A stretch of 49,370 bases of DNA, taken from the IMG/VR virus record IMGVR_UViG_2522572023_000012. The stretch is one strand, 5' to 3'. Position numbers and translations under genes: made by a program. Positions 1,680 through 16,144 of the stretch are shown here, piece after piece (positions within the stretch are counted from its first letter, which is position 1; every line of letters starts with the position of its first letter). Below the pieces are notes generated by a model. It worked only from the letters and a program-made list of their open reading frames with translations. It did no database searches and was not told the origin of the DNA. This stretch comes from a virus. Lineage: Duplodnaviria; Heunggongvirae; Uroviricota; Caudoviricetes.

Positions 1680-3869
1680 TTGCTAATCCTTGCAGTTTTT
1701 GATTATAACATTTTTATTTGTTTATTAGGATTTTTGATGGAACTGTTACAGGAACACGGGGCGATACTTAAAGTTGTAATCATGCCTACTACTGGGGAAC
1801 AAACCATAATCCAAGGTTTCGATACTGGCCTCCTCAACCCAGAGATATCCAACATTCTTTTTTTATTGGCCAAAACACCAAAAGAAATTAGTGAGATTTT
1901 TGTCAATGAAAATGATAACTTTCAGCCTACTCTAAGCGGGCTAAATCCTATTTTTTTAATATCTAAAGAAAATCTTGAAAAAATACCAAATATTTATCAA
2001 ACGCCATTTTGCTTAATTTTTTGTGCTAAAGAAGATTTTTCGTATGTTTGTGCTTTAAAAAAACATTTTGCTATACCACCTATAATTTGTTGCAATTCTA
2101 AACGCGCTGATCTACCACTTAATAAGATTAATAGTATATACTCATTTGATAAGGTGCTCTTCTCTCGGTTGAAATTCATTGAGGATAAAATAAGAAAAAA
2201 TCACAGTGAAAAGAAAATATCAACGAAGTTGAAGCGAAGAGGGGCTTTATTTAATAAATCACCTTGGAGATCGACGCTTAACAATTCAACACTACCCAAT
2301 GAGTTGTTAATTGAATCACTTGGCTATATGCTATCTCCACCAAAAAGAATTAAAGATGGTAGTAGCAAAAGAGAGTTTATAGAAATAATACTTCATAGCG
2401 TTGATGCATACACCGAATGTTTAAAGGAATTAGATATACCACTTCCAACGGAAGTCTTACTTTTTGCTCCGGGTATGCACTCTTTTTTATATGATAAAAA
2501 TAATGACTTTTATGAGTTAATAACGGAAAATTTATCCACAATTGAGAAAAAATTCCTTATTGATGGAGTGTTGAGGAATCCTGGCTATTCTGGAATTAGA
2601 CTTGATATAAATTCAGATAGAAAAGAACTTTTTAAAAGTCCTGCTTTCCGTTACCTCACCTCACTAAGACGCGCTGAAATGCGATTAACAACAGCTGCGA
2701 TTACTTTATTTAGCATAAATAAAAAAATCCCAGCAATAAGATTGCCAAATGCAATAAATCATTACTCCAATTATTTGAAAAATCTTGAAGATCTTGCAAC
2801 TTCTTCTGGGATAAATAGTGAAGCATTCATCACTAAATCTAAAGCATTCAATACTGTTATTCGAAGAGCCCTTGGTTGCAAGTTGAGAACATATATAAGT
2901 AAAAACTATAGCGATTTGTCCTTTGTTTGTGATGTACCATTGGATTGGATTAGGTTTAATAACATACCTATAATGTTCAGTCATGAGATATCAAGAATAA
3001 ATGCTACGCCTGGTAACGTTCTTCTACAGAGCGCCTCTGCTTTTCCGCGCGTTTTAGTAAAAGCATCTGAGTTGAGAAAGGTTTTAGTTATACGTTCTTT
3101 TGAGCCTGATGATCACTTAAAGTTCATATTAGAGAACGCAATTGAGATATTTAAAAAACAGATGCCAGATCTTGATTGCGAGATTATTGATGTTAGATCG
3201 AAAGCTGAGTTTATTGATGCTCTAAATCAATATCAAGGTCATATTCTTGTTATGGATTGTCATGGAAACCATGATGGCAATGGGAGTCATGGATGGTTAA
3301 TAATAGGTGAGGATAAAGTGGACACTTGGAGTTTGAGAAAAATAGCAAGAATTCCTCCTATCGTAATTCTGAGTGCATGTTTAACATCTGCCCTAAGCGG
3401 TTCTCATGCCTCTGTTGCTAATGGCTTCGTTATAAGTGGTGCATTAAGTGTCATCGGAACATTACTGCCAGTAAATGCGATAGACTCTGCTGTGTTTGTA
3501 AGTCGGTTGATCTACCGGTTTTACGAGTTTCCTTCGACGCTATCTACAAATTTTACACATGTTAATGTAAGGCTTTTTCTTTCTGTTTTTCTTAGGATGT
3601 CCTATGCAAGCGATTTAATAAGAGGATTTTTATCTGAAGATTTGATACCGAATAACTCATGGAAGAAAGATGCAGTTGATATTAACATGTATATAAACAT
3701 GCTTCACCATGATTGGTATGATTATGTAATTAACAAATTGACGATGTTAACGGGGCTCACGAAAAAAGATGTACTTGATTTTATCGATAGAAAATTATTC
3801 ATAACCGAAACTATGTGCTATAGCCAAATTGGATTTCCAGATGCAATCACAATTAGTCTTAAAGATTGA
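1680..3869 (+). CDS. Large CHAT-domain (caspase-like protease) protein with uncharacterised N-terminal region; candidate defence/abortive-infection effector. True start may be internal (about 1737 MELLQEHG or 1785 MPTTGEQ)
   Basis: Uninterrupted 729-codon frame in a strongly AT-rich islet. C-terminal region shows a caspase/CHAT-like dyad: beta-strand ILVMDCHGNH (His-Gly), then about 40 aa later IVILSAC (Cys), followed by a Gly-rich hydrophobic stretch. Confidence 0.6.
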   Translation: MLILAVFDYNIFICLLGFLMELLQEHGAILKVVIMPTTGEQTIIQGFDTGLLNPEISNILFLLAKTPKEISEIFVNENDNFQPTLSGLNPIFLISKENLEKIPNIYQTPFCLIFCAKEDFSYVCALKKHFAIPPIICCNSKRADLPLNKINSIYSFDKVLFSRLKFIEDKIRKNHSEKKISTKLKRRGALFNKSPWRSTLNNSTLPNELLIESLGYMLSPPKRIKDGSSKREFIEIILHSVDAYTECLKELDIPLPTEVLLFAPGMHSFLYDKNNDFYELITENLSTIEKKFLIDGVLRNPGYSGIRLDINSDRKELFKSPAFRYLTSLRRAEMRLTTAAITLFSINKKIPAIRLPNAINHYSNYLKNLEDLATSSGINSEAFITKSKAFNTVIRRALGCKLRTYISKNYSDLSFVCDVPLDWIRFNNIPIMFSHEISRINATPGNVLLQSASAFPRVLVKASELRKVLVIRSFEPDDHLKFILENAIEIFKKQMPDLDCEIIDVRSKAEFIDALNQYQGHILVMDCHGNHDGNGSHGWLIIGEDKVDTWSLRKIARIPPIVILSACLTSALSGSHASVANGFVISGALSVIGTLLPVNAIDSAVFVSRLIYRFYEFPSTLSTNFTHVNVRLFLSVFLRMSYASDLIRGFLSEDLIPNNSWKKDAVDINMYINMLHHDWYDYVINKLTMLTGLTKKDVLDFIDRKLFITETMCYSQIGFPDAITISLKD

Positions 3870-7947: not shown

Positions 7948-8838
7948 TCAGGCTGCCAGATCATCGTTTCCGATGGAAGCATAATAAGCTTTTTCTGCTT
8001 CTGCCGGAGGAGTATGGCCCAGCCTTTCCAGCAATCGTCGATTGTTATACCAGTCCACCCACGTGAGTGTGGCCAGTTCCACTTCTGCACGGTTTTTCCA
8101 GCTCTTACGGTGTATTACCTCCGCTTTGTAAAGACCATTGATGCTCTCCGCCATCGCGTTGTCATACGAGTCGCCTGTACTTCCTGTTGATGCCAGTAAT
8201 CCGGCTTCCTTAAGCCGCTGTGTGTAGGCCAGCGATACATACTGAGAACCTTTATCACTGTGATGGAGCGTGCCGGACGGTCGACGGGCCCATAACGCCT
8301 GCTCCAGTGCATCCAGCACGAATGTCGTCTCCATGGACGATGAGACCCGCCACCCCACAATGTATCCGGCAAACACATCAATGATGAACGCCACATAGAC
8401 GAAGCCCTGCCATGTGCTGACGTAAGTAAAATCAGCCACCCACAGCTGGTCAGGTCGTTCTGCCACGAACTGACGGTTTACGCGGTCGCCTGCGGCAACG
8501 GCTTTCCGGCTGATGGTCGTACGGACCTTTTTACCCCGGAGAACACCGGCAAGTCCCATAACCGCCATGAGACGTGCCACAGTGCATCTGGCCACTCTGA
8601 TACCTTCCCGTAACAACTGACGCCAGACTTTACGCACACCGTATACCTTGTGATTTTCATCGTATACGCGCTGTATCTCTTTCTTCAGCCAGTCATCGCG
8701 CTGCGCACGGGCACTGCGTTTATCCGGATGATGTCGCTGTTGCTGACAGTGGTAATACGTTGACGGGGCAATATGCAGTTCGCTGCATAGCGGTCCGACC
8801 CCGTACTGCTCACGCAGCTTATCCAGCAGTGGCATCAT
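7948..8838 (-). CDS. IS3-family transposase OrfB (IS629-like)
   Basis: 296 aa with DDE-integrase character (LWVADFTYV...HSDKGSQY...DNAMAES). Confidence 0.9.
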   Translation of the reverse strand: MMPLLDKLREQYGVGPLCSELHIAPSTYYHCQQQRHHPDKRSARAQRDDWLKKEIQRVYDENHKVYGVRKVWRQLLREGIRVARCTVARLMAVMGLAGVLRGKKVRTTISRKAVAAGDRVNRQFVAERPDQLWVADFTYVSTWQGFVYVAFIIDVFAGYIVGWRVSSSMETTFVLDALEQALWARRPSGTLHHSDKGSQYVSLAYTQRLKEAGLLASTGSTGDSYDNAMAESINGLYKAEVIHRKSWKNRAEVELATLTWVDWYNNRRLLERLGHTPPAEAEKAYYASIGNDDLAA

Positions 8839-9076
8839 TTTTTCCAGAGGCGGTCGAACTCCGCCTTCGCAAAATAAGCGGAAGCCTGGCGAAGGATATC
8901 GTTACTGCGGCGCAGTTCACGATTTTCACGCTCCAGCTCTTTCAGACGCTGACGTTCAGCGGTGGTGAGCCCTCCATCACCGCCCCCGGTATCCCGCTCA
9001 TGCTGGCGAACCCAGACACGCAGAGTCTCCGGCGTACAGCCAATCTTTGGAGCAATGGAACAAATTGTCGCCCATT
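8835..9076 (-). pseudogene. IS3-family transposase OrfA, N-terminally truncated remnant
   Basis: Frame reads ...QWATICSIAPKIGCTPETLRVWVRQHERDTGGGDGGLTTAERQRLKELERENRELRRSNDILRQASAYFAKAEFDRLWKK* with no start codon; upstream sequence diverges. Confidence 0.6.
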
Positions 9077-9116
9077 GTGGTTCACTTTGATGATTTTGAC
9101 GAAAATGAATGGGATC

Positions 9117-9338
9117 CTAATTTGTCTGCACAATATCTAAAGTAGCATCCTGTGATAAAACCATGATTTCCTGATCCAGTTTTTTTAAGGAGTCTATTGT
9201 TTCCTGTCGATAAGACAGCAATTCACGAAGCTGGTTTATAGCTGCCAGCTTCTTTGTCATCCACTCGTAAATTTCCTCATCTGTGTAGCCAGGCGCGACG
9301 ATTTTTGGTTCTGTTTTGTGCATTTCACATCTCCTCAA
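9117..9338 (-). CDS. Hypothetical small protein between the IS remnant and cI
   Basis: 73-aa ORF with coiled-coil-like composition; position corresponds to the moron slot left of cI in lambdoid phages. Confidence 0.35.
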   Translation of the reverse strand: MRRCEMHKTEPKIVAPGYTDEEIYEWMTKKLAAINQLRELLSYRQETIDSLKKLDQEIMVLSQDATLDIVQTN

Positions 9339-9570: not shown

Positions 9571-10197
9571 TTAGAGTTCGTATTGAACTCCTTTGACTAC
9601 ACCAATGATAAGGCAATTACCATTGATAGGGATGTTGGGATACCGAGGATTTAATGGCACTAAAAACTTTTGAGGGCCATCGATGACTAATTTTTTTACT
9701 GTAGCTTCGTTTGTTCCATCAAGTCGAGCGATGACTATTTTTCCATGACGAGGTTCTGCATCTGGATCTACAATCACTGTTGCGCCTTCTGGTATTGTTG
9801 GGAGGCCATTAGGGTTAGTCATGGAGTCACCTTTAACCTCTAATGCAAATGAGTTATCACCAATCTTTAATGATGTATCTACCCACTTGTCCACTTCACT
9901 AAACACTTCTGCTGCCCTGCACTCAGTAAACTGCCCAGCCTGAACCCACGATATTACAGGAACTCTGCGCATGTTTGTGACGAGTTTGCCTTCAAACTCA
10001 GCACCATAAAGAATGTAATCTATTGACGTATTGAAGAACTTCGCTAATTTCGAAAGTGCCTCCCCACCAGGGGTATTGATGTCTTTCTCCCAGTACCCCA
10101 CAGCAACGTCGCTTACTCCACAAAATTTACCCAATTCTTTCTGGGACGTTCCGGTAACTCTTCTCAGAGCTTTTATACGCTGACCAACCGTTTCCAT
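9571..10197 (-). CDS. cI: CI-like prophage repressor (HTH + S24 LexA-like peptidase domain)
   Basis: N-terminal HTH (QKELGKFCGVSDVAVGYWE); C-terminal S24 motifs (GDSM ... KIVIARLDG...TVKKL); divergent from cro. Confidence 0.9.
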   Translation of the reverse strand: METVGQRIKALRRVTGTSQKELGKFCGVSDVAVGYWEKDINTPGGEALSKLAKFFNTSIDYILYGAEFEGKLVTNMRRVPVISWVQAGQFTECRAAEVFSEVDKWVDTSLKIGDNSFALEVKGDSMTNPNGLPTIPEGATVIVDPDAEPRHGKIVIARLDGTNEATVKKLVIDGPQKFLVPLNPRYPNIPINGNCLIIGVVKGVQYEL

Positions 10198-10294
10198 AGG
10201 AGCACCATTTCTTGAATTGCTAAGTAATCTTAGTTTTTATTGACCAAAGATAGATTTGTAATTAGCATCTAATAAAACTTAGTTTGGAGGGCGT
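10198..10294. promoter_or_regulatory. cI-cro divergent promoter/operator region
   Basis: 97-bp AT-rich intergenic region with two related 14-bp imperfect palindromes, CTAAGTAATCTTAG (10220-10233) and CTAATAAAACTTAG (10269-10282). Confidence 0.5.
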
Positions 10295-10495
10295 ATGACA
10301 ACTGACGATATCGAAAGCTACTTCGGCAGTATTGAGAAAGTTGCTGCTTTTTTCGGCATAACAACTGAAGCCGTTTATCAGTGGCGAAACCGTCCGGGCC
10401 AGTTAATTCCAAAAGGACGTGCAGCAGAAGCTGCATATAGAACTTGCGGACGGTTGCCATTTAAACCTGAGCTTTATGAAAAATCTAATGGATAA
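10295..10495 (+). CDS. cro: Cro-like HTH transcriptional regulator
   Basis: 66-aa ORF divergent from cI; HTH VAAFFGITTEAVYQWRN. Confidence 0.7.
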   Translation: MTTDDIESYFGSIEKVAAFFGITTEAVYQWRNRPGQLIPKGRAAEAAYRTCGRLPFKPELYEKSNG

Positions 10496-11084
10496 ATCGA
10501 TTAACAGAAACCACAGAACGATGAGGCTAACCGTGGGTAAGCATCACTGGAAAGTAGAAAAACAGCCTGAGTGGTACGTGAAAGCTGTCAGAAAAACTAT
10601 CGCAGCGTTGCCGGGTGGTTACGCTGAAGCAGCTGACTGGCTGGATGTAACAGAAAACGCATTATTTAACCGCCTTCGTGCCGATGGCGATCAGATTTTC
10701 CCGCTGGGATGGGCAATGATTTTGCAACGTGCTGGTGGAACTCACTTCATTGCTGACGCTGTGGCGCAGTCTGCAAATGGCGTCTTTGTGTCTCTTCCTG
10801 ACGTCGAGGATGTGGACAACGCCGATATTAACCAGCGCCTGCTGGAAGTCATTGAACAGATTGGCAGTTATTCCAGACAGATTCGTTCGGCAATCGAAGA
10901 CGGTGTGGTGGAACCGCATGAGAAGACAGCAATTAACGACGAGCTGTATCTCTCAATTTCGAAGCTGCAGGAGCATGCAGCACTGGTCTACAAAATCTTT
11001 TGCATTTCAGAAAGTAATGACGCCCGCGAGTGTGCAGCTCCGGGCGCCGTGGCGTGTCGTGACTGTGGAGAAACTAACGCATGA
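10488..11084 (+). CDS. Putative CII-like regulatory protein (start uncertain)
   Basis: Positioned immediately after cro; ORF overlaps the cro end so the start is probably internal (MDKSINRN...). Confidence 0.4.
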
Positions 11085-11439
11085 ACAGTTTAACAACACA
11101 CTACCGTCGCTCGCAACTGATTGCGCTTCCTGTACCGGGTGGAAAAGCGAAGGTGGAGTATTGCTATGCAGTTAATGTACCAGGTGACAGGGAAATTGTA
11201 ACCCACAGCTTTGCTGAGTGGGCTGTGGGTGATTTCAACCGGCAGAAGGAGACAGTCCTTTGCGACAAGTTAACCGCTGGTTCAAAGATCACTACGGAGT
11301 GCCCGTCAGAGTCATTCGTTGGGAGTCGGAAACACAACGAGTTATCTACCTCCGCGAAGGCTATGAGCATGAGTGCTTCAGCCCGCTCGAACAGTTTCGT
11401 CGTAAATTCAGGGAAATAGAGGTCGGTCATGAGCACTAA
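11081..11439 (+). pseudogene. Hypothetical protein with an apparent -1 frame change near 11225-11260
   Basis: N-terminal part reads in the listed frame ([10 protein letters not shown]...AEWAVGDF); a second frame continues protein-like (...[63 protein letters not shown]) to a stop overlapping the next gene's start. Confidence 0.4.
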
Positions 11440-12370
11440 ATTAACCGGCTATGTATGGGATGGTTGCGCTGCATCAGGCATGAAATTATCCAGCGTGGCA
11501 ATTATGGCCCGCCTGGCTGATTTCAGTAATGACGAAGGTGTGTGCTGGCCATCAATTGAAACTATTGCCCGTCAGATTGGCGCGGGGATGAGTACCGTCA
11601 GGACGGCTATCGCACGGCTGGAAGCAGAAGGCTGGTTAACGCGTAAGGCGCGTCGCCAGGGTAACCGCAATGCGTCGAATGTTTATCAGCTTAACGTTGC
11701 GAAGCTTCAGGCAGCGGCATTTTCTCAACTGTCAGATTCTGACCCGTCAAAATCTGACGCATCAAAATCTGACCCGTCAAAATTTGATGCGTCGAAATCT
11801 GGCAAAAAAGCGGGTTTTCACCCGTCAGAATCTGGCGGGGATCCGTCAGTAAAATCAAAACATGATCCGTCAGATAAAAAACCTTCTCGTCCGGACGCTT
11901 CGCAACCGGACACGCAGACGGATGAACAGGATTTTTTAACTCGCCATCCTGATGCGGTTGTATTCAGCCCTAAAAAGCGCCAGTGGGGAACGCAGGATGA
12001 TTTGACCTGCGCACAGTGGCTCTGGAAAAAAATCATCGCCCTGTACGAGCAAGCCGCCGAATGTGACGGCGAGGTGGTTCGTCCCAAAGAACCGAACTGG
12101 ACAGCCTGGGCAAACGAAATTCGCCTGATGTGTGTGCAGGATGGTCGTACTCACAAACAAATCTGCGAGATGTACAGCCGCGTCAGCCGCGATCCGTTCT
12201 GGTGCCGTAACGTGCTCAGCCCGTCGAAGTTGCGGGAAAAATGGGATGAGCTTTCCCTGCGCTTATCACCGTCCGTCAGCACGTACACCGAAAAACGCGA
12301 AGACCCGTACTTCAAATCCAGTTACGACAACGTGGACTACAGCCAGATCCCGGCAGGATTCAGGGGGTGA
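11429..12370 (+). CDS. Replication initiation protein: N-terminal winged-HTH, internal iteron/linker region, C-terminal DnaT-like domain
   Basis: N-terminal wHTH (CWPSIETIARQIGAGMSTVRTAIARLEAEGWL); C-terminus ends ...YSQIPAGFRG, resembling the C-terminus of primosomal protein DnaT as I recall it; central low-complexity DPSKSDASKS repeats. Confidence 0.8.
   Translation: MSTKLTGYVWDGCAASGMKLSSVAIMARLADFSNDEGVCWPSIETIARQIGAGMSTVRTAIARLEAEGWLTRKARRQGNRNASNVYQLNVAKLQAAAFSQLSDSDPSKSDASKSDPSKFDASKSGKKAGFHPSESGGDPSVKSKHDPSDKKPSRPDASQPDTQTDEQDFLTRHPDAVVFSPKKRQWGTQDDLTCAQWLWKKIIALYEQAAECDGEVVRPKEPNWTAWANEIRLMCVQDGRTHKQICEMYSRVSRDPFWCRNVLSPSKLREKWDELSLRLSPSVSTYTEKREDPYFKSSYDNVDYSQIPAGFRG
11728..11880. 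repeat. Putative replication origin iterons: about seven 15-bp-periodic repeats of CCGTCA(A/G)AATCTG followed by an A-rich tract, inside the initiator gene
   Basis: Direct repeats ccgtcaaaatctga / gcatcaaaatctga / ccgtcaaaatttga / gcgtcgaaatctgg / ccgtcagaatctgg / ccgtcagtaaaatc / ccgtcagataaaaa. Confidence 0.6.
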
Positions 12371-12852
12371 TCATGAGCCTGATGAGTGAGATTCAAAAAT
12401 TCATTGAAAGCAATCCTGGATGTACGACCGGTGATATTGCGAACGCGTTTGCATACTTTCCACGTCCCCGTGTACTGAATACGACCAGTAAGTTACGCCA
12501 GTGCAGACGTGTCGCTTATCGCAGTGAAGGCAAAACACACCGGCATTTTTCTCGCAAGGCTGTGTTGCCACCTGAGCCGGTGCTGAAGCATATGAGTGTG
12601 GCCAGTAAAAGCTACGTCGGCACTAATGATCAGCGGGTGATTTTGCGCCTGATTCAGCAGGCAGAAGATCTGGAGTCAAGAGGTTTATTTCGTCGTGCTG
12701 CAACGGTGTGGATGGAGGCATTCCGTGAAAGCCACTCCCAGTCAGAACGAAACAATTTTCTGGCGCGCCGTGAGCGGTGTGTACGCAAAAGTAAAAGGTG
12801 CGTGGCATCGGGTGAAGAGTGGTATCTGCCAGGCAATTACGTGGGGGCTTAA
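12367..12852 (+). CDS. Hypothetical regulatory protein (possibly PerC-like)
   Basis: 161-aa basic protein after the replication gene; PerC-like assignment is from recalled family character only. Confidence 0.4.
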   Translation: MIMSLMSEIQKFIESNPGCTTGDIANAFAYFPRPRVLNTTSKLRQCRRVAYRSEGKTHRHFSRKAVLPPEPVLKHMSVASKSYVGTNDQRVILRLIQQAEDLESRGLFRRAATVWMEAFRESHSQSERNNFLARRERCVRKSKRCVASGEEWYLPGNYVGA

Positions 12853-13178
12853 TGACGACGTTAACTCAATGCCAGCAGCAGGTGCTGGATATGCTGATTT
12901 CTTACCAGAAAGAACGTGGCTTCCCGCCAACCAATCAGGAGGTGGCAACCATGCTGGGATACCGTTCAGTGAATGCAGCGGTGGAGCATCTTCGCGCACT
13001 GGAGAAAAAAGGCGTCATCACAATAAAGCGTGGCGTGGCCCGGGGGATAACGCTTCATACCGCAGTGAAGGACGACGACAGCGAGGCGGTCGGGATTATC
13101 CGCGCACTGCTTGCCGGTGAGGAAAACGCCAGGCTGCGTGCAACTCACTGGTTACATGAGAGGGGCTTGAAAGTATGA
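12852..13178 (+). CDS. LexA N-terminal-like winged-helix DNA-binding protein (no peptidase domain)
   Basis: MTTLTQCQQQVLDMLISYQKERGFPPTNQEVATMLGYRSVNAAVEHLRALEKKGVI matches the LexA DNA-binding domain pattern. Confidence 0.55.
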   Translation: MTTLTQCQQQVLDMLISYQKERGFPPTNQEVATMLGYRSVNAAVEHLRALEKKGVITIKRGVARGITLHTAVKDDDSEAVGIIRALLAGEENARLRATHWLHERGLKV

Positions 13179-14382: not shown

Positions 14383-15378
14383 GTGACCGTGAGAGCACTA
14401 CTGACCCCTGAAATTGCCCCGCGTATGGGGATCGTATTGTTCAGGCCAGGTTCAGAGCTGATGCCCCTGTTTATGCAGGGGCGTGTCCTGCTGGAGCCTG
14501 AGCCGGAACGTTATTCATCTTTCGCCAGTGGTGCCGTTCCGGCGGCATCACAACCGCTGGCGGATGATCCTGCCGTTCGGGCCGTGTTCCGCAATGAGGC
14601 AGTGATCCGTCGTGCTGGTGGTGTGGAATGTCTTGAAAGCTGGTTACTTCGTGAAAAGGGCTGTCAGTGGCCTCATTCCGACTGGCACAGCGAGAACATG
14701 ACCACAATGCGGCACGCTCCGGGAGCAATTCGTCTGTGCTGGCACTGCGATAACCAGCTGCGTGACCAGTTCACGGAACGGCTGGAATCAATGGCAACGG
14801 ATAACTGTGCCCGCTGGGTGTTGTCTGTCGTGCGTCGGGATCTCGGTTTTGATGACAGTCACGTTGTGACAATGCCGGAACTGTGCTGGTGGCTGGTTCG
14901 TAATGATTTGGCGGATGCCTTACCGGAAAGTGCAGCCCGTAAGGCACTGAGATTACCGAAGCCTGTTGTGCCATCTGTCACCCGGGAAAGTGACCTTGTG
15001 CCTTCGGTTCCTGCCACCAGCATAATCCAGGATAAAGCGAAAAAGGTGCTGGCGCTGAAAGTGGATCCGGAGTCGCCGGAGTCTTTTATGTTACGCCCCA
15101 AACGTCGCCGCTGGGTTAATGAAAAGTACACGCGCTGGGTTAAGACGCAGCCGTGCGCATGTTGTGGAAAGCCAGCTGATGATCCCCACCACCTGATAGG
15201 CCACGGTCAGGGTGGAATGGGTACAAAAGCGCATGATCTCTTTGTGTTGCCTTTGTGCAGAAAGCATCACGACGAGCTGCATGCGGATACCGTGACATTT
15301 GAAGAGAAGTATGGCTCCCAACTGGAGCTGATATTTCGTTTTATCGATCGTGCGCTGGCAATTGGCGTACTGGCGTAA
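14383..15378 (+). CDS. DUF968-family protein (YdfU-like) with C-terminal Cys/His-rich region
   Basis: 331 aa; C-terminal CACCGKPADDPHHLIGHGQGG...HHDELH metal-binding-like motif, as in lambdoid DUF968 proteins. Confidence 0.65.
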   Translation: MTVRALLTPEIAPRMGIVLFRPGSELMPLFMQGRVLLEPEPERYSSFASGAVPAASQPLADDPAVRAVFRNEAVIRRAGGVECLESWLLREKGCQWPHSDWHSENMTTMRHAPGAIRLCWHCDNQLRDQFTERLESMATDNCARWVLSVVRRDLGFDDSHVVTMPELCWWLVRNDLADALPESAARKALRLPKPVVPSVTRESDLVPSVPATSIIQDKAKKVLALKVDPESPESFMLRPKRRRWVNEKYTRWVKTQPCACCGKPADDPHHLIGHGQGGMGTKAHDLFVLPLCRKHHDELHADTVTFEEKYGSQLELIFRFIDRALAIGVLA

Positions 15379-15391
15379 GTGGAGAACGAGC

Positions 15392-16144
15392 ATGAACCTT
15401 GAAGCCTTACCAAAATATTACTCCCCAAAATCTCCAAAATTGAGTGATGCCGCACCGGCGACAGGCTCAGGTGGTTTAACGATTACGGATGTGATGGCTG
15501 CGCAGGGGATGGTGCAGTCGAAAGCACCGCTTGGGTTTGCCTTATTCCTGGCAAAAGCTGGCGTTCAGGATCCTCAGTTTGCGATTGAAGGTCTGCTCAA
15601 TTACGCGATGGCACTGGATAACCCGACATTGAACAAATTGAGTGAAGAAATCCGGTTACAGATCATCCCTTACCTTGTGAGTTTTGCCTTTGCTGATTAT
15701 TCCAGGTCTGCGGCAAGTAAGGCTCGCTGTGAGCCTTGTGCTGGTACTGGATTTCATAATGTATTGCGCGAAGTGGTGAAATACTCCAGAAGCGGGGAGT
15801 CTGTTATCAAGGAAGAGTGGGTGAAGGAACTATGTCAGCATTGTCATGGTAAGGGAGAAGTCAGCACAGCGTGCAGAGGGTGTAAGGGTAAAGGTATTGT
15901 CCTGGATGAAAAAAGGACCCGGCTTCATGGCGCGCCTGTTTATAAGATTTGTGGGCGTTGCAATGGAAACCGGTTTAGTCGTTTACCAACGACACTGGCG
16001 CGGTGTCATGTCCAGAAGCTGGTACCAGACCTGACTGATTATCAGTGGTACAAAGGATATGCAGATGTCATTGATAAACTGGTTACAAAGTGCTGGCAGG
16101 AAGAAGCATATGCTGAGGTGCAATTAAGAAAAGTGACGAGATAA
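15392..16144 (+). CDS. Late-gene antitermination protein Q
   Basis: Cys-rich zinc-binding segment (CEPCAGTG...CQHCHGKGE...CRGCKGKG...CGRCNG); located just upstream of a terminator and the lysis cassette. Confidence 0.75.
   Translation: MNLEALPKYYSPKSPKLSDAAPATGSGGLTITDVMAAQGMVQSKAPLGFALFLAKAGVQDPQFAIEGLLNYAMALDNPTLNKLSEEIRLQIIPYLVSFAFADYSRSAASKARCEPCAGTGFHNVLREVVKYSRSGESVIKEEWVKELCQHCHGKGEVSTACRGCKGKGIVLDEKRTRLHGAPVYKICGRCNGNRFSRLPTTLARCHVQKLVPDLTDYQWYKGYADVIDKLVTKCWQEEAYAEVQLRKVTR

Follow-up and report, generated by a model that had tools for sequence, protein, structure and literature searches.

A lambda-O-like replication initiator with a candidate origin in its own gene and a DnaT-type C-terminal tail in an SfII/SfIV/CPS-53-type lambdoid prophage

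The DNA considered here is a stretch of 49,370 nucleotides from a virus of the Caudoviricetes (IMG/VR record IMGVR_UViG_2522572023_000012), called the window below when its full length is meant. It carries a replication initiator gene at positions 11429-12370, and this locus raises two questions: where replication would start, and how a helicase would be loaded there. A preliminary description, made from the letters alone, had proposed an initiator with a DnaT-like C-terminus, an origin-like repeat array inside its coding sequence and helicase loading through the host primosome. The answer that we consider reasonably probable is that the gene encodes a lambda-O-type, origin-specific initiator, that the origin lies in its own coding sequence, and that the C-terminal tail of the protein recruits the host DnaB-DnaC complex through DnaC.

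The initiator and its DnaT-like tail

The gene and the parts of its product are as follows.
11429-12370, plus strand: initiator gene from the open reading frame (ORF) list, 313 amino acids, ATG start
11429-11725, plus strand: winged-helix DNA-binding domain (N-domain), residues 1-99, HTH_36, the presumed iteron reader
11921-12268, plus strand: lambda-O-C-terminal-like helical domain (C-domain), residues 165-280
12317-12367, plus strand: DnaT-type C-terminal tail, residues 297-313, SSYDNVDYSQIPAGFRG, the proposed DnaC-DnaB docking peptide

The ORF is preceded by a GAGG Shine-Dalgarno sequence, and its product ends ...DNVDYSQIPAGFRG before the stop codon. The assignment as a replication initiator holds: the product matches PHROG 391 (phrog_391), “replication initiation O-like”, with E=1e-135, and its C-domain is homologous to lambda O (BLASTP E=7e-26, 31% identity over 216 amino acids, residues 70-277 against residues 78-270 of O; by tblastn, lambda O is 39% identical and phi80 gp15 35%). 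The gene is the replication initiator of an SfII/SfIV/CPS-53-type lambdoid prophage (yfdO-type). A profile search of the N-terminal domain, suggested in the preliminary description as a check, identified Pfam HTH_36 (PF13730) on residues 23-70 (E=4e-11, 42.9 bits against a cut-off of 25); the Phage_rep_O family (PF04492), which lambda O matches at E=6e-36, was not matched by the window protein at E<=0.1.

In the AlphaFold2 (AF2) model, the N-domain has a predicted local distance difference test (pLDDT) score of ~80-89. Residues 103-164, the S/D/K/P-rich linker encoded by the repeats, are predicted to be disordered (pLDDT <40); the final ~30 residues are flexible, and the tail is of low confidence and also predicted to be disordered. 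The full-length model returned only MarR/ArsR-type winged-helix matches in Foldseek, all of them to the N-domain, and the C-terminal half was modelled separately for this reason. The family profile gave weak winged-helix matches only against PDB sequences, DnaT not being among them. In its make-up the initiator is a mosaic of modules that can be exchanged: the N-domain with the iterons and the putative unwinding block, the O-like C-domain, and the tail.

DnaT of E. coli K-12 (taken from NC_000913) ends ...SEPDSQIPPGFRG before its stop codon. The resemblance to this end, noted in the preliminary description, was borne out by pairwise alignment: BLASTP of the two proteins gave eight identities out of nine at the extreme C-terminus of both (SQIPAGFRG in the initiator, SQIPPGFRG in DnaT; E=0.009 for the pair), and profile-profile comparison of the two families (hhalign) gave E=9.4e-6 over 33 columns. 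Sister initiators ending VNHISEPDTEIPPGFRG match DnaT VNTVSEPDSQIPPGFRG at 13 of 17 positions, and sister initiators end RCVNHISEPDTEIPPGFRG where DnaT has RDVNTVSEPDSQIPPGFRG. The tail is invariant in 27 DnaT orthologues, and S167, D170, I173, P174, G176, F177, R178 and G179 of DnaT are invariant across Enterobacteriaceae. Many synonymous codons are used among the 32 distinct tail DNAs; because the tail codons vary in this way, selection appears to act on the peptide and not on its DNA.

Outside the tail, no similarity to the N-terminal oligomerisation domain or to the acidic PriB-binding linker of DnaT was detected by BLASTP or hhalign, and the DnaT domain PF17948, a three-helix domain that binds single-stranded DNA (ssDNA), is absent from the initiator in Pfam searches. 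The DnaT resemblance is thus real but confined to the tail, and since the defining domain is absent, the initiator is not to be classed by its sequence as a member of the DnaT family. Literature searches for the tail motif (IPPGFRG, PGFRG), its distribution in phage initiators or its link to DnaC returned no paper, and nothing specific was found on the function of the DnaT tail or of YdaU/YdaV.

A different combination was observed in one locus (L134, IMG/VR UViG_2636415435_000005) and five similar ones, which encode 271-amino-acid phage proteins with both PF17948 (E=4e-18) and the tail (...WQQKLARSVQLSR...EPDSEIPPGFRG). Their N-terminal half is unrelated and no DnaC gene follows; these proteins bear on whether host dnaT derives from phage initiators.

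Tail type and the neighbouring loader gene

No helicase-loader gene follows the initiator, as the preliminary description had stated. The next gene is PerC-like, and lambda P, phi80 gp14 and E. coli DnaC gave zero matches as tblastn queries across the 49-kb window; these searches, together with Pfam searches of the early-region ORFs, detected no helicase, primase or loader.

The loader gene of related phages was then compared with the C-terminal end of their initiator. Each initiator with the lambda-type tail NTDW[IA]YG has a lambda P homologue as the following gene (lambda, phi80, Erwinia phage 59 and two Pantoea prophages). The two Pantoea members (L010 and L011) carry the window-type N-domain and iterons, end ...NTDWIYGIEE..., which is comparable to ...NTDWIYGVDL of lambda O and to the end of phi80 gp15, and have the P homologue immediately next. 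A P homologue also comes next in a Hafnia phage whose O-like protein has yet another C-terminal end. The GFR(G) tail was never followed by P, whether in the window, SfIV, Klebsiella, Pantoea, another E. coli type, mEp460, an Stx2a phage or phiNP, and the same was true of the GFR(G)-tail initiators of 80 IMG/VR loci. In 91 loci whose tail is of the GFR type (DYSQIPAGFRG in nearly all), neither P nor DnaC nor DnaB was found within 3.5 kb.

The locus search with the C-domain returned near-identical loci only, which served for the study of copy-number variation and not of diversity, and it was therefore replaced by a DNA pattern of the tail that ignores the protein body and by a search starting from DnaC. 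The first, an IMG/VR scan for ...EPDxxIPPGFRG followed by a stop codon, gave 120 loci, ~97 of them with enough downstream DNA: a DnaC homologue (~50% identical to E. coli DnaC) lies 7 nucleotides after the stop codon in 38 of these, and P in none. In the reverse test, all 80 IMG/VR DnaC homologues of the sample, which includes two host dnaT-dnaC pairs, are preceded by an ORF ending xPDxxIP[PAE]GF[RKT]G at a distance of 3-7 nucleotides (one overlaps). The upstream ORFs represent 42 distinct proteins in at least six unrelated body clusters. The tail-bearing bodies include the mEp460/SfV type (with a different C-domain), phiNP (Phg_2220_C), the DUF1376/YdaU type, a phage protein with a true DnaT domain and a protein with a lambda-O-type N-terminus. 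E. coli K-12 has the arrangement twice, as dnaT-dnaC and as ydaU-ydaV in the Rac prophage.

The protein with a lambda-O-type N-terminus (L223, IMG/VR UViG_2839873421_000002; MSNTAKVIKFP...MADLENGY...) ends ...VNHISQPDTEIPAGFRG and has a DnaC homologue 3 nucleotides later. It is a natural chimera of an O body, a DnaT tail and DnaC, complementing the Pantoea combination of window body, lambda tail and P (L010, L011). One locus (L003, P0113) was at one point considered as loader-less, wrongly, since the contig is cut and the next ORF is a DnaC-like N-terminus.

According to the mechanism that we favour, the flexible tail ...DYSQIPAGFRG, as found on DnaT and on Rac YdaU, would recruit the DnaB-DnaC helicase/loader complex through DnaC, and would correspond to the lambda-type tail found together with P. 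The complex would have to be the host's, because the phage encodes neither P nor DnaC. More generally, but only tentatively, the motif ...(V/I)N..S.PD..IPxGFRG-COOH may be a portable docking motif for DnaC (or DnaB-DnaC), common to DnaT, YdaU and at least six unrelated initiator bodies of enterobacterial phages, and equivalent in role to the lambda O tail.

The main rival explanation keeps the same initiator and in-gene origin and lets the tail dock on PriA (or PriB), after which the restart primosome PriA-PriB-DnaT would assemble and load DnaB; this corresponds to the primosome-dependent loading that the preliminary description had drawn from the DnaT resemblance. DnaT, which shares the tail, contacts the HD2 and C-terminal domain (HD2/CTD) of PriA through its C-terminal domain and a conserved hydrophobic surface in the preprimosome seen by cryo-electron microscopy (PMC13377028), the tail is itself hydrophobic (IPxGF), and ColE1-type plasmids and phiX174 make use of primosomes that depend on PriA (PMC4129139). 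However, PriA docking leaves unexplained why every sampled phage DnaC gene directly follows a tail-bearing gene, on at least six unrelated bodies, and why the tail replaces the P-associated tail in otherwise homologous initiators, and the window initiator has neither the ssDNA-binding domain nor the acidic PriB-binding linker of DnaT. The comparative data point to DnaC instead: because the tail co-occurs with DnaC-type loaders (80/80), direct recruitment of DnaC-DnaB is better supported, and loading by way of PriA or PriB is considered unlikely.

A second and less probable explanation, which we regard as improbable, is that the tail recruits nothing: it could govern stability or turnover, take part in ssDNA contact or self-association, or be in large part a by-product of translation initiation downstream, and loading would then be achieved by the O-like C-domain through contacts with host proteins. 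When residues 154-179 are removed from DnaT, its dissociation constant (Kd) for ssDNA is roughly doubled and cooperativity falls (PMC4132743); disorder is predicted for the tail, and a Shine-Dalgarno-like AGG-GGG closes 24 of the 32 distinct tail DNAs. A degron or a ribosome-binding-site artefact would not, however, be expected to conserve ~17 residues with free synonymous variation, to be kept on bodies without any other common domain, or to be mutually exclusive with the P-associated tail.

Several points weigh against recruitment of DnaC by the tail, or against other parts of the favoured mechanism. The association of tail and DnaC is one of gene neighbourhood only, shared ancestry of rep-dnaC cassettes contributes to it, and the IMG/VR samples are dominated by prophages of the E. 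coli group and by DnaC homologues ~50% identical to that of E. coli. In the sampled loci, no phage DnaC gene lies next to a tail of the exact window variant, DYSQIPAGFRG, whose link to DnaC is therefore made only by extension from the IPPGFRG variants. The AGG-GGG codons at the gene end may double as the ribosome-binding site of the next gene. A search of the literature found no published origin activity, iteron binding or contact between tail and DnaC for this initiator family, and the A-rich block taken below as unwinding element is only moderately A+T-rich (~69%). Ducos et al. 2026 (PMC13377028) proposed, by analogy with DnaA, that DnaT's N-terminal domain recruits DnaB/DnaC, and showed the protein's C-terminal domain docked on PriA; since the extreme tail is not discussed there, a contact of the tail with PriA is possible. 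Recruitment of DnaC by the tail is thus a hypothesis that competes with the published suggestion for the DnaT N-domain.

The initiator gene itself is known; what is new is the comparative pattern that couples tail type to loader gene. Tail swaps between otherwise homologous initiators track the loader gene (P versus DnaC or none), and because tails are swapped in step with it, the pattern points to the ~17-residue peptide as a putative loader-specifying element. How DnaT recruits DnaB/DnaC is stated to be unknown in reviews and in the 2026 structure paper (PMC13377028), and the comparison offers a testable hypothesis for this long-standing gap in replication restart, the handover from DnaT to DnaB-DnaC. 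The interest of the locus, modest for the gene alone, is raised by the correlation of tail and loader, as it makes this open question directly testable. If the docking motif is real, it would be the element by which the PriA-PriB-DnaT preprimosome recruits DnaB/DnaC, the step called “unknown” in 2026 (PMC13377028), dnaT-dnaC would be a domesticated phage initiator-loader cassette, and phages such as that of the window would do without a loader of their own by mimicking the DnaT tail. A phage origin of the dnaT-dnaC operon is likewise supported by the comparison of tail sequences.

The candidate origin inside the initiator gene

The linker-coding segment between the N-domain and the C-domain contains the following elements.
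11729-11803: five tandem 15-bp iterons, consensus nCGTCAAAATCTGAC, with a dyad-symmetric (near-palindromic) core GTCAnAATCTGAC
11822-11836: sixth iteron, CCGTCAGAATCTGGC, 33 bp after the fifth, conserved in Klebsiella, Pantoea and Citrobacter relatives
11837-11885: A-rich, strand-asymmetric block with two GATCCGTCAG half-sites and GATC at 11840 and 11864, a candidate DNA-unwinding element
11886-11915: conserved junction TCTCGTCCGGACGCTTCGCAACCGGACACG, where recombination joins the specificity module (N-domain and candidate origin) to the C-terminal module

Tandem Repeats Finder reported a period of 15 with 4.3 copies at 11738-11801, and the repeat search six copies with spacings of 15, 15, 15, 15 and 33. 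The repeats and the period noted in the preliminary description are thus real, and its count of about seven is corrected to six full units plus the two GATCCGTCAG half-sites (11840, 11864). Allowing at most two mismatches, the 12-mer CGTCARAATCTG has 28 occurrences in the window, where shuffled sequences give 8.1 +/- 3.0, and nine of the 28 fall within 11730-11837. An A-rich tract (11849-11883, ~31% G+C) follows the repeats. Translation of the repeat region gives ...SDPSKSDASKSDPSKFDASKS..., in agreement with the DPSKSDASKS-type linker described earlier. No DnaA boxes were found from 10.5 to 13 kb. The elements are arranged as in the annotated ori-lambda, with iterons and then an A-rich tract within the linker-coding segment of O, and together with the constraint at the DNA level this arrangement is consistent with the parallel to lambda drawn in the preliminary description.

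Relatives with different N-domains have different 15-bp dyad iterons in the same place (TCAAAATCTGA, TTGACCCGTCAA and TCCAGAAWCTGGA in the three compared). The iteron types are nCGTCAAAATCTGAC (window, Klebsiella, Pantoea), GTTGACCCGTCAAnn (P0113 type) and CGTCCAGAAWCTGRA (P0093 type); the DNA of the A-rich block is conserved even among relatives whose iterons differ. Among genes that are 97-100% identical, copy number varies in steps of 15 bp, giving proteins of 308, 313, 318 and 323 amino acids. Conservation of codons was assessed in a codon alignment of seven divergent genes, as the fraction of identical residues that are encoded by the same codon. This fraction is 0.8-0.93 over residues 101-164 versus 0.35-0.6 in the folded domains, and it peaks over the A-rich block (0.91-0.93), which has the highest synonymous-site conservation of the gene. 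Amino acid identity of the linker is lower than that of the folded domains despite this higher synonymous-site conservation. Within the repeat units, the second codon is always a serine TCR and the fourth is TCT in 95 of 97, counts that are not phylogenetically independent, and the first codon is free (P, A or T).

In a 330-amino-acid mosaic relative (L067 type), a different N-domain comes with repeats of its own, and the join to the window sequence falls exactly behind the A-rich tract. On this ground the N-domain, the iterons and the putative unwinding block travel as one recombination module. The explanation of the 15-bp repeats as a mere low-complexity expansion of a flexible linker, with the real origin elsewhere, has in its favour that they do encode a disordered S/D/K/P-rich linker (pLDDT <40). 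It is very improbable, as conservation of synonymous sites far exceeds that in the folded domains while that of amino acids is lower, the choice of codons within a unit is fixed, the units have dyad symmetry and differ where the N-domain differs, position and layout are as in ori-lambda, and the N-domain recombines together with the repeats as a single module. In favour of an origin there are four independent comparative signals, by which the interpretation of the repeat region as a cis-acting DNA element and candidate origin is well supported.

In the proposed mechanism, dimers of the winged-helix N-domain would bind the six dyad-symmetric 15-bp iterons (11729-11836), and the resulting nucleoprotein complex would open the adjacent A-rich, GATC-containing block (11837-11885), probably aided by rightward transcription from pR. 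The homologies of the domains, the anatomy of the repeats, the constraint on the DNA and the associations of neighbouring genes are observed directly in the sequences, while binding of the iterons by the N-domain, opening of the A-rich block and contact of the tail with DnaC are inferred. The iterons, unwinding block and module boundary together provide a sequence-defined candidate origin for SfII/SfIV/CPS-53-type lambdoid phages, which can be of use for annotation and for the building of replicons. Serotype-converting phages of Shigella belong to this family, and the same tail is found on the replication protein of some Stx phages. Nothing specific was found in the literature on origin analysis in SfIV or SfV. 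The “Eru” replication types of Stx phages (PMC8044961) were considered and do not correspond to the window initiator module.

A perfect copy of the first iteron core, GTCAGATTCTGAC, lies at 33173-33185, 21 kb from the candidate origin, where shuffled sequences predict 0.06 matches to this core with at most one mismatch. It stands in the end region of an IS66-family insertion among the tail genes (30806-33210; tnpC 30806-32344, tnpB 32394-32741 and tnpA 32738-33139, all on the minus strand), and was rejected as an initiator site, the match being probably coincidental.

Gene context and other features of the window

The window contains a complete lambdoid prophage. Its integrase (386-1603) is followed by the early genes, then by Q and the lysis genes, and finally by the head and tail genes, the tail fibres lying near 48 kb. 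The initiator lies within the early-right operon, in the gene order cI-cro-cII-rep-Q. Upstream of it are a cI-like repressor (9571-10197, minus strand), cro (10295-10495), a CII/YmfL-like regulator and a small DUF4222 gene; downstream come, in order, the PerC-like gene, a protein with a LexA DNA-binding domain, RusA, KilA-N, DUF968/HNH and Q. Three further features were located.
10240-10268, plus strand: pR-like promoter (TTGACC-17-TAGCAT) upstream of cro, from a consensus scan only, the count of such matches not being above that in shuffles
11260-11439, plus strand: DUF4222 gene, 59 amino acids (Pfam DUF4222, E=7e-19), whose stop codon overlaps the initiator start (ATGA)
12367-12852, plus strand: PerC-family regulator (yfdN-like; Pfam PerC, E=3e-8), which occupies the position of lambda P

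The pR-like candidate is plausible because it is placed between the divergent cI-like repressor and cro, and it would drive transcription through the initiator gene and the candidate origin. DUF4222 also directly precedes the initiator in the Klebsiella/Pantoea loci L005, L006 and L011, and is close by in L010; since the initiators of this family in Klebsiella and Pantoea also usually have it directly upstream, it is suggested to play an accessory part in replication or in the control of replication. A 112-amino-acid ORF (11081-11419; phrog_1170, SfIV gp40) overlaps the DUF4222 ORF (11260-11439) in another frame, and RefSeq annotates the DUF4222 ORF of this pair. The PerC-like gene (12367-12852) showed no similarity to lambda P or DnaC.

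The initiator gene is 98-100% identical to its counterparts in the Shigella phages SfII and SfIV, in Kati and in several E. coli phages, where it is labelled “replication protein O”, “O protein family protein” or “primosomal protein”. It is carried by 2724 of 5426 complete E. coli genomes, with the RefSeq label “helix-turn-helix domain-containing protein” and yfdN as downstream neighbour. The gene is thus common and already catalogued, and is among the commonest prophage replication genes of E. coli and Shigella.

Several other genes of the window were characterized. The 119-amino-acid protein at 12819-13178 lacks the S24 peptidase domain and is essentially a LexA DNA-binding domain (E=4e-19); it is kept just 3' of the replication gene in SfIV, mEp460 and Stx phages, and could compete with LexA at SOS boxes. 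The Q-type antiterminator (15350-16144) has an N-terminal extension that matches the DnaJ-like CXXCXGXG zinc finger (E=1e-7). An inserted IS3-family element (7948-9200; orfB 7948-8838, minus strand) separates the early-left genes from the cI-like repressor, and the early-left operon of the prophage may be disrupted by it. The gene right after the integrase (1680-3869) encodes a 729-amino-acid protein with a CHAT (caspase-like) domain; standing at the end of the prophage, it may serve in defence or be cargo.

Comparison with known systems

Among the closest known systems is lambda O/ori-lambda, with phi80 gene 15. As in these phages, the gene lies in the early-right operon after cII and the origin would lie within the linker-coding segment; in common with lambda, several dyad-symmetric iterons are followed by an A-rich strand-asymmetric tract, the N-domain and origin specificity are modular, and the C-domains are homologous. 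The N-domain is HTH_36 in the window and Phage_rep_O in lambda, the iterons are 15-bp direct tandem units whereas those of lambda are ~19 bp long and spaced by 20-24 bp, and no P gene follows. Lambda and phi80 end ...NTDW[IA]YGV.. and the window protein ...DYSQIPAGFRG, so that the last ~30 residues are replaced. The initiator would thus work like lambda O on ori-lambda, while missing two features of the family, the Phage_rep_O N-domain and a cognate P.

The phages SfV, mEp460, Stx2a_WGPS2 and Citrobacter phage phiNP share an identical or near-identical tail with the window (last 76 nucleotides 97% identical) and have no loader gene next to the initiator. PhiNP also has the N-domain, iterons and A-rich block of the window. 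These phages differ from it in the central and C-terminal bodies, mEp460 having an unrelated C-domain and phiNP Phg_2220_C.

A published precedent for an O-like HTH_36 protein joined to DnaT-like sequence is DopC of Cellvibrionales and Oceanospirillales (Brezellec et al. 2017, PMC5509034), which is described as combining HTH_36 with a “DnaT C-terminal motif” and as coming from a lambda-O-like phage gene. Unlike the window initiator, DopC is chromosomal, has neither iterons nor the O C-domain, and is paired with the lambda-P-like DopE; it is reported to carry the DnaT C-terminal domain (PDB 2ru8), whereas the initiator has the tail only (PMC5509034).

With DnaT itself, the initiator shares the extreme C-terminal peptide, and sister phage initiators are followed by a DnaC homologue as dnaT is by dnaC. 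PF17948, the N-terminal oligomerisation domain and the acidic PriB-binding linker are all missing from the initiator, and while DnaT acts at PriA-bound forks, the initiator would bind a specific double-stranded origin. The Rac prophage of E. coli K-12 offers the same tail on another body: YdaU ends ...VNTVSLPDSAIPPGFRG, its end ...QVNTVSLPDSAIPPGFRG being identical to the DnaT tail at 15 of 17 positions (L299:1620-3230), and the DnaC paralogue YdaV lies 7 nucleotides later. The YdaU body (DUF1376) is unrelated to HTH_36 and the O-like C-domain, and the window phage is without a ydaV-like gene. YdaU-YdaV may thus be considered as a phage replication module built on the same tail, and as a second dnaT-dnaC-like pair in K-12.

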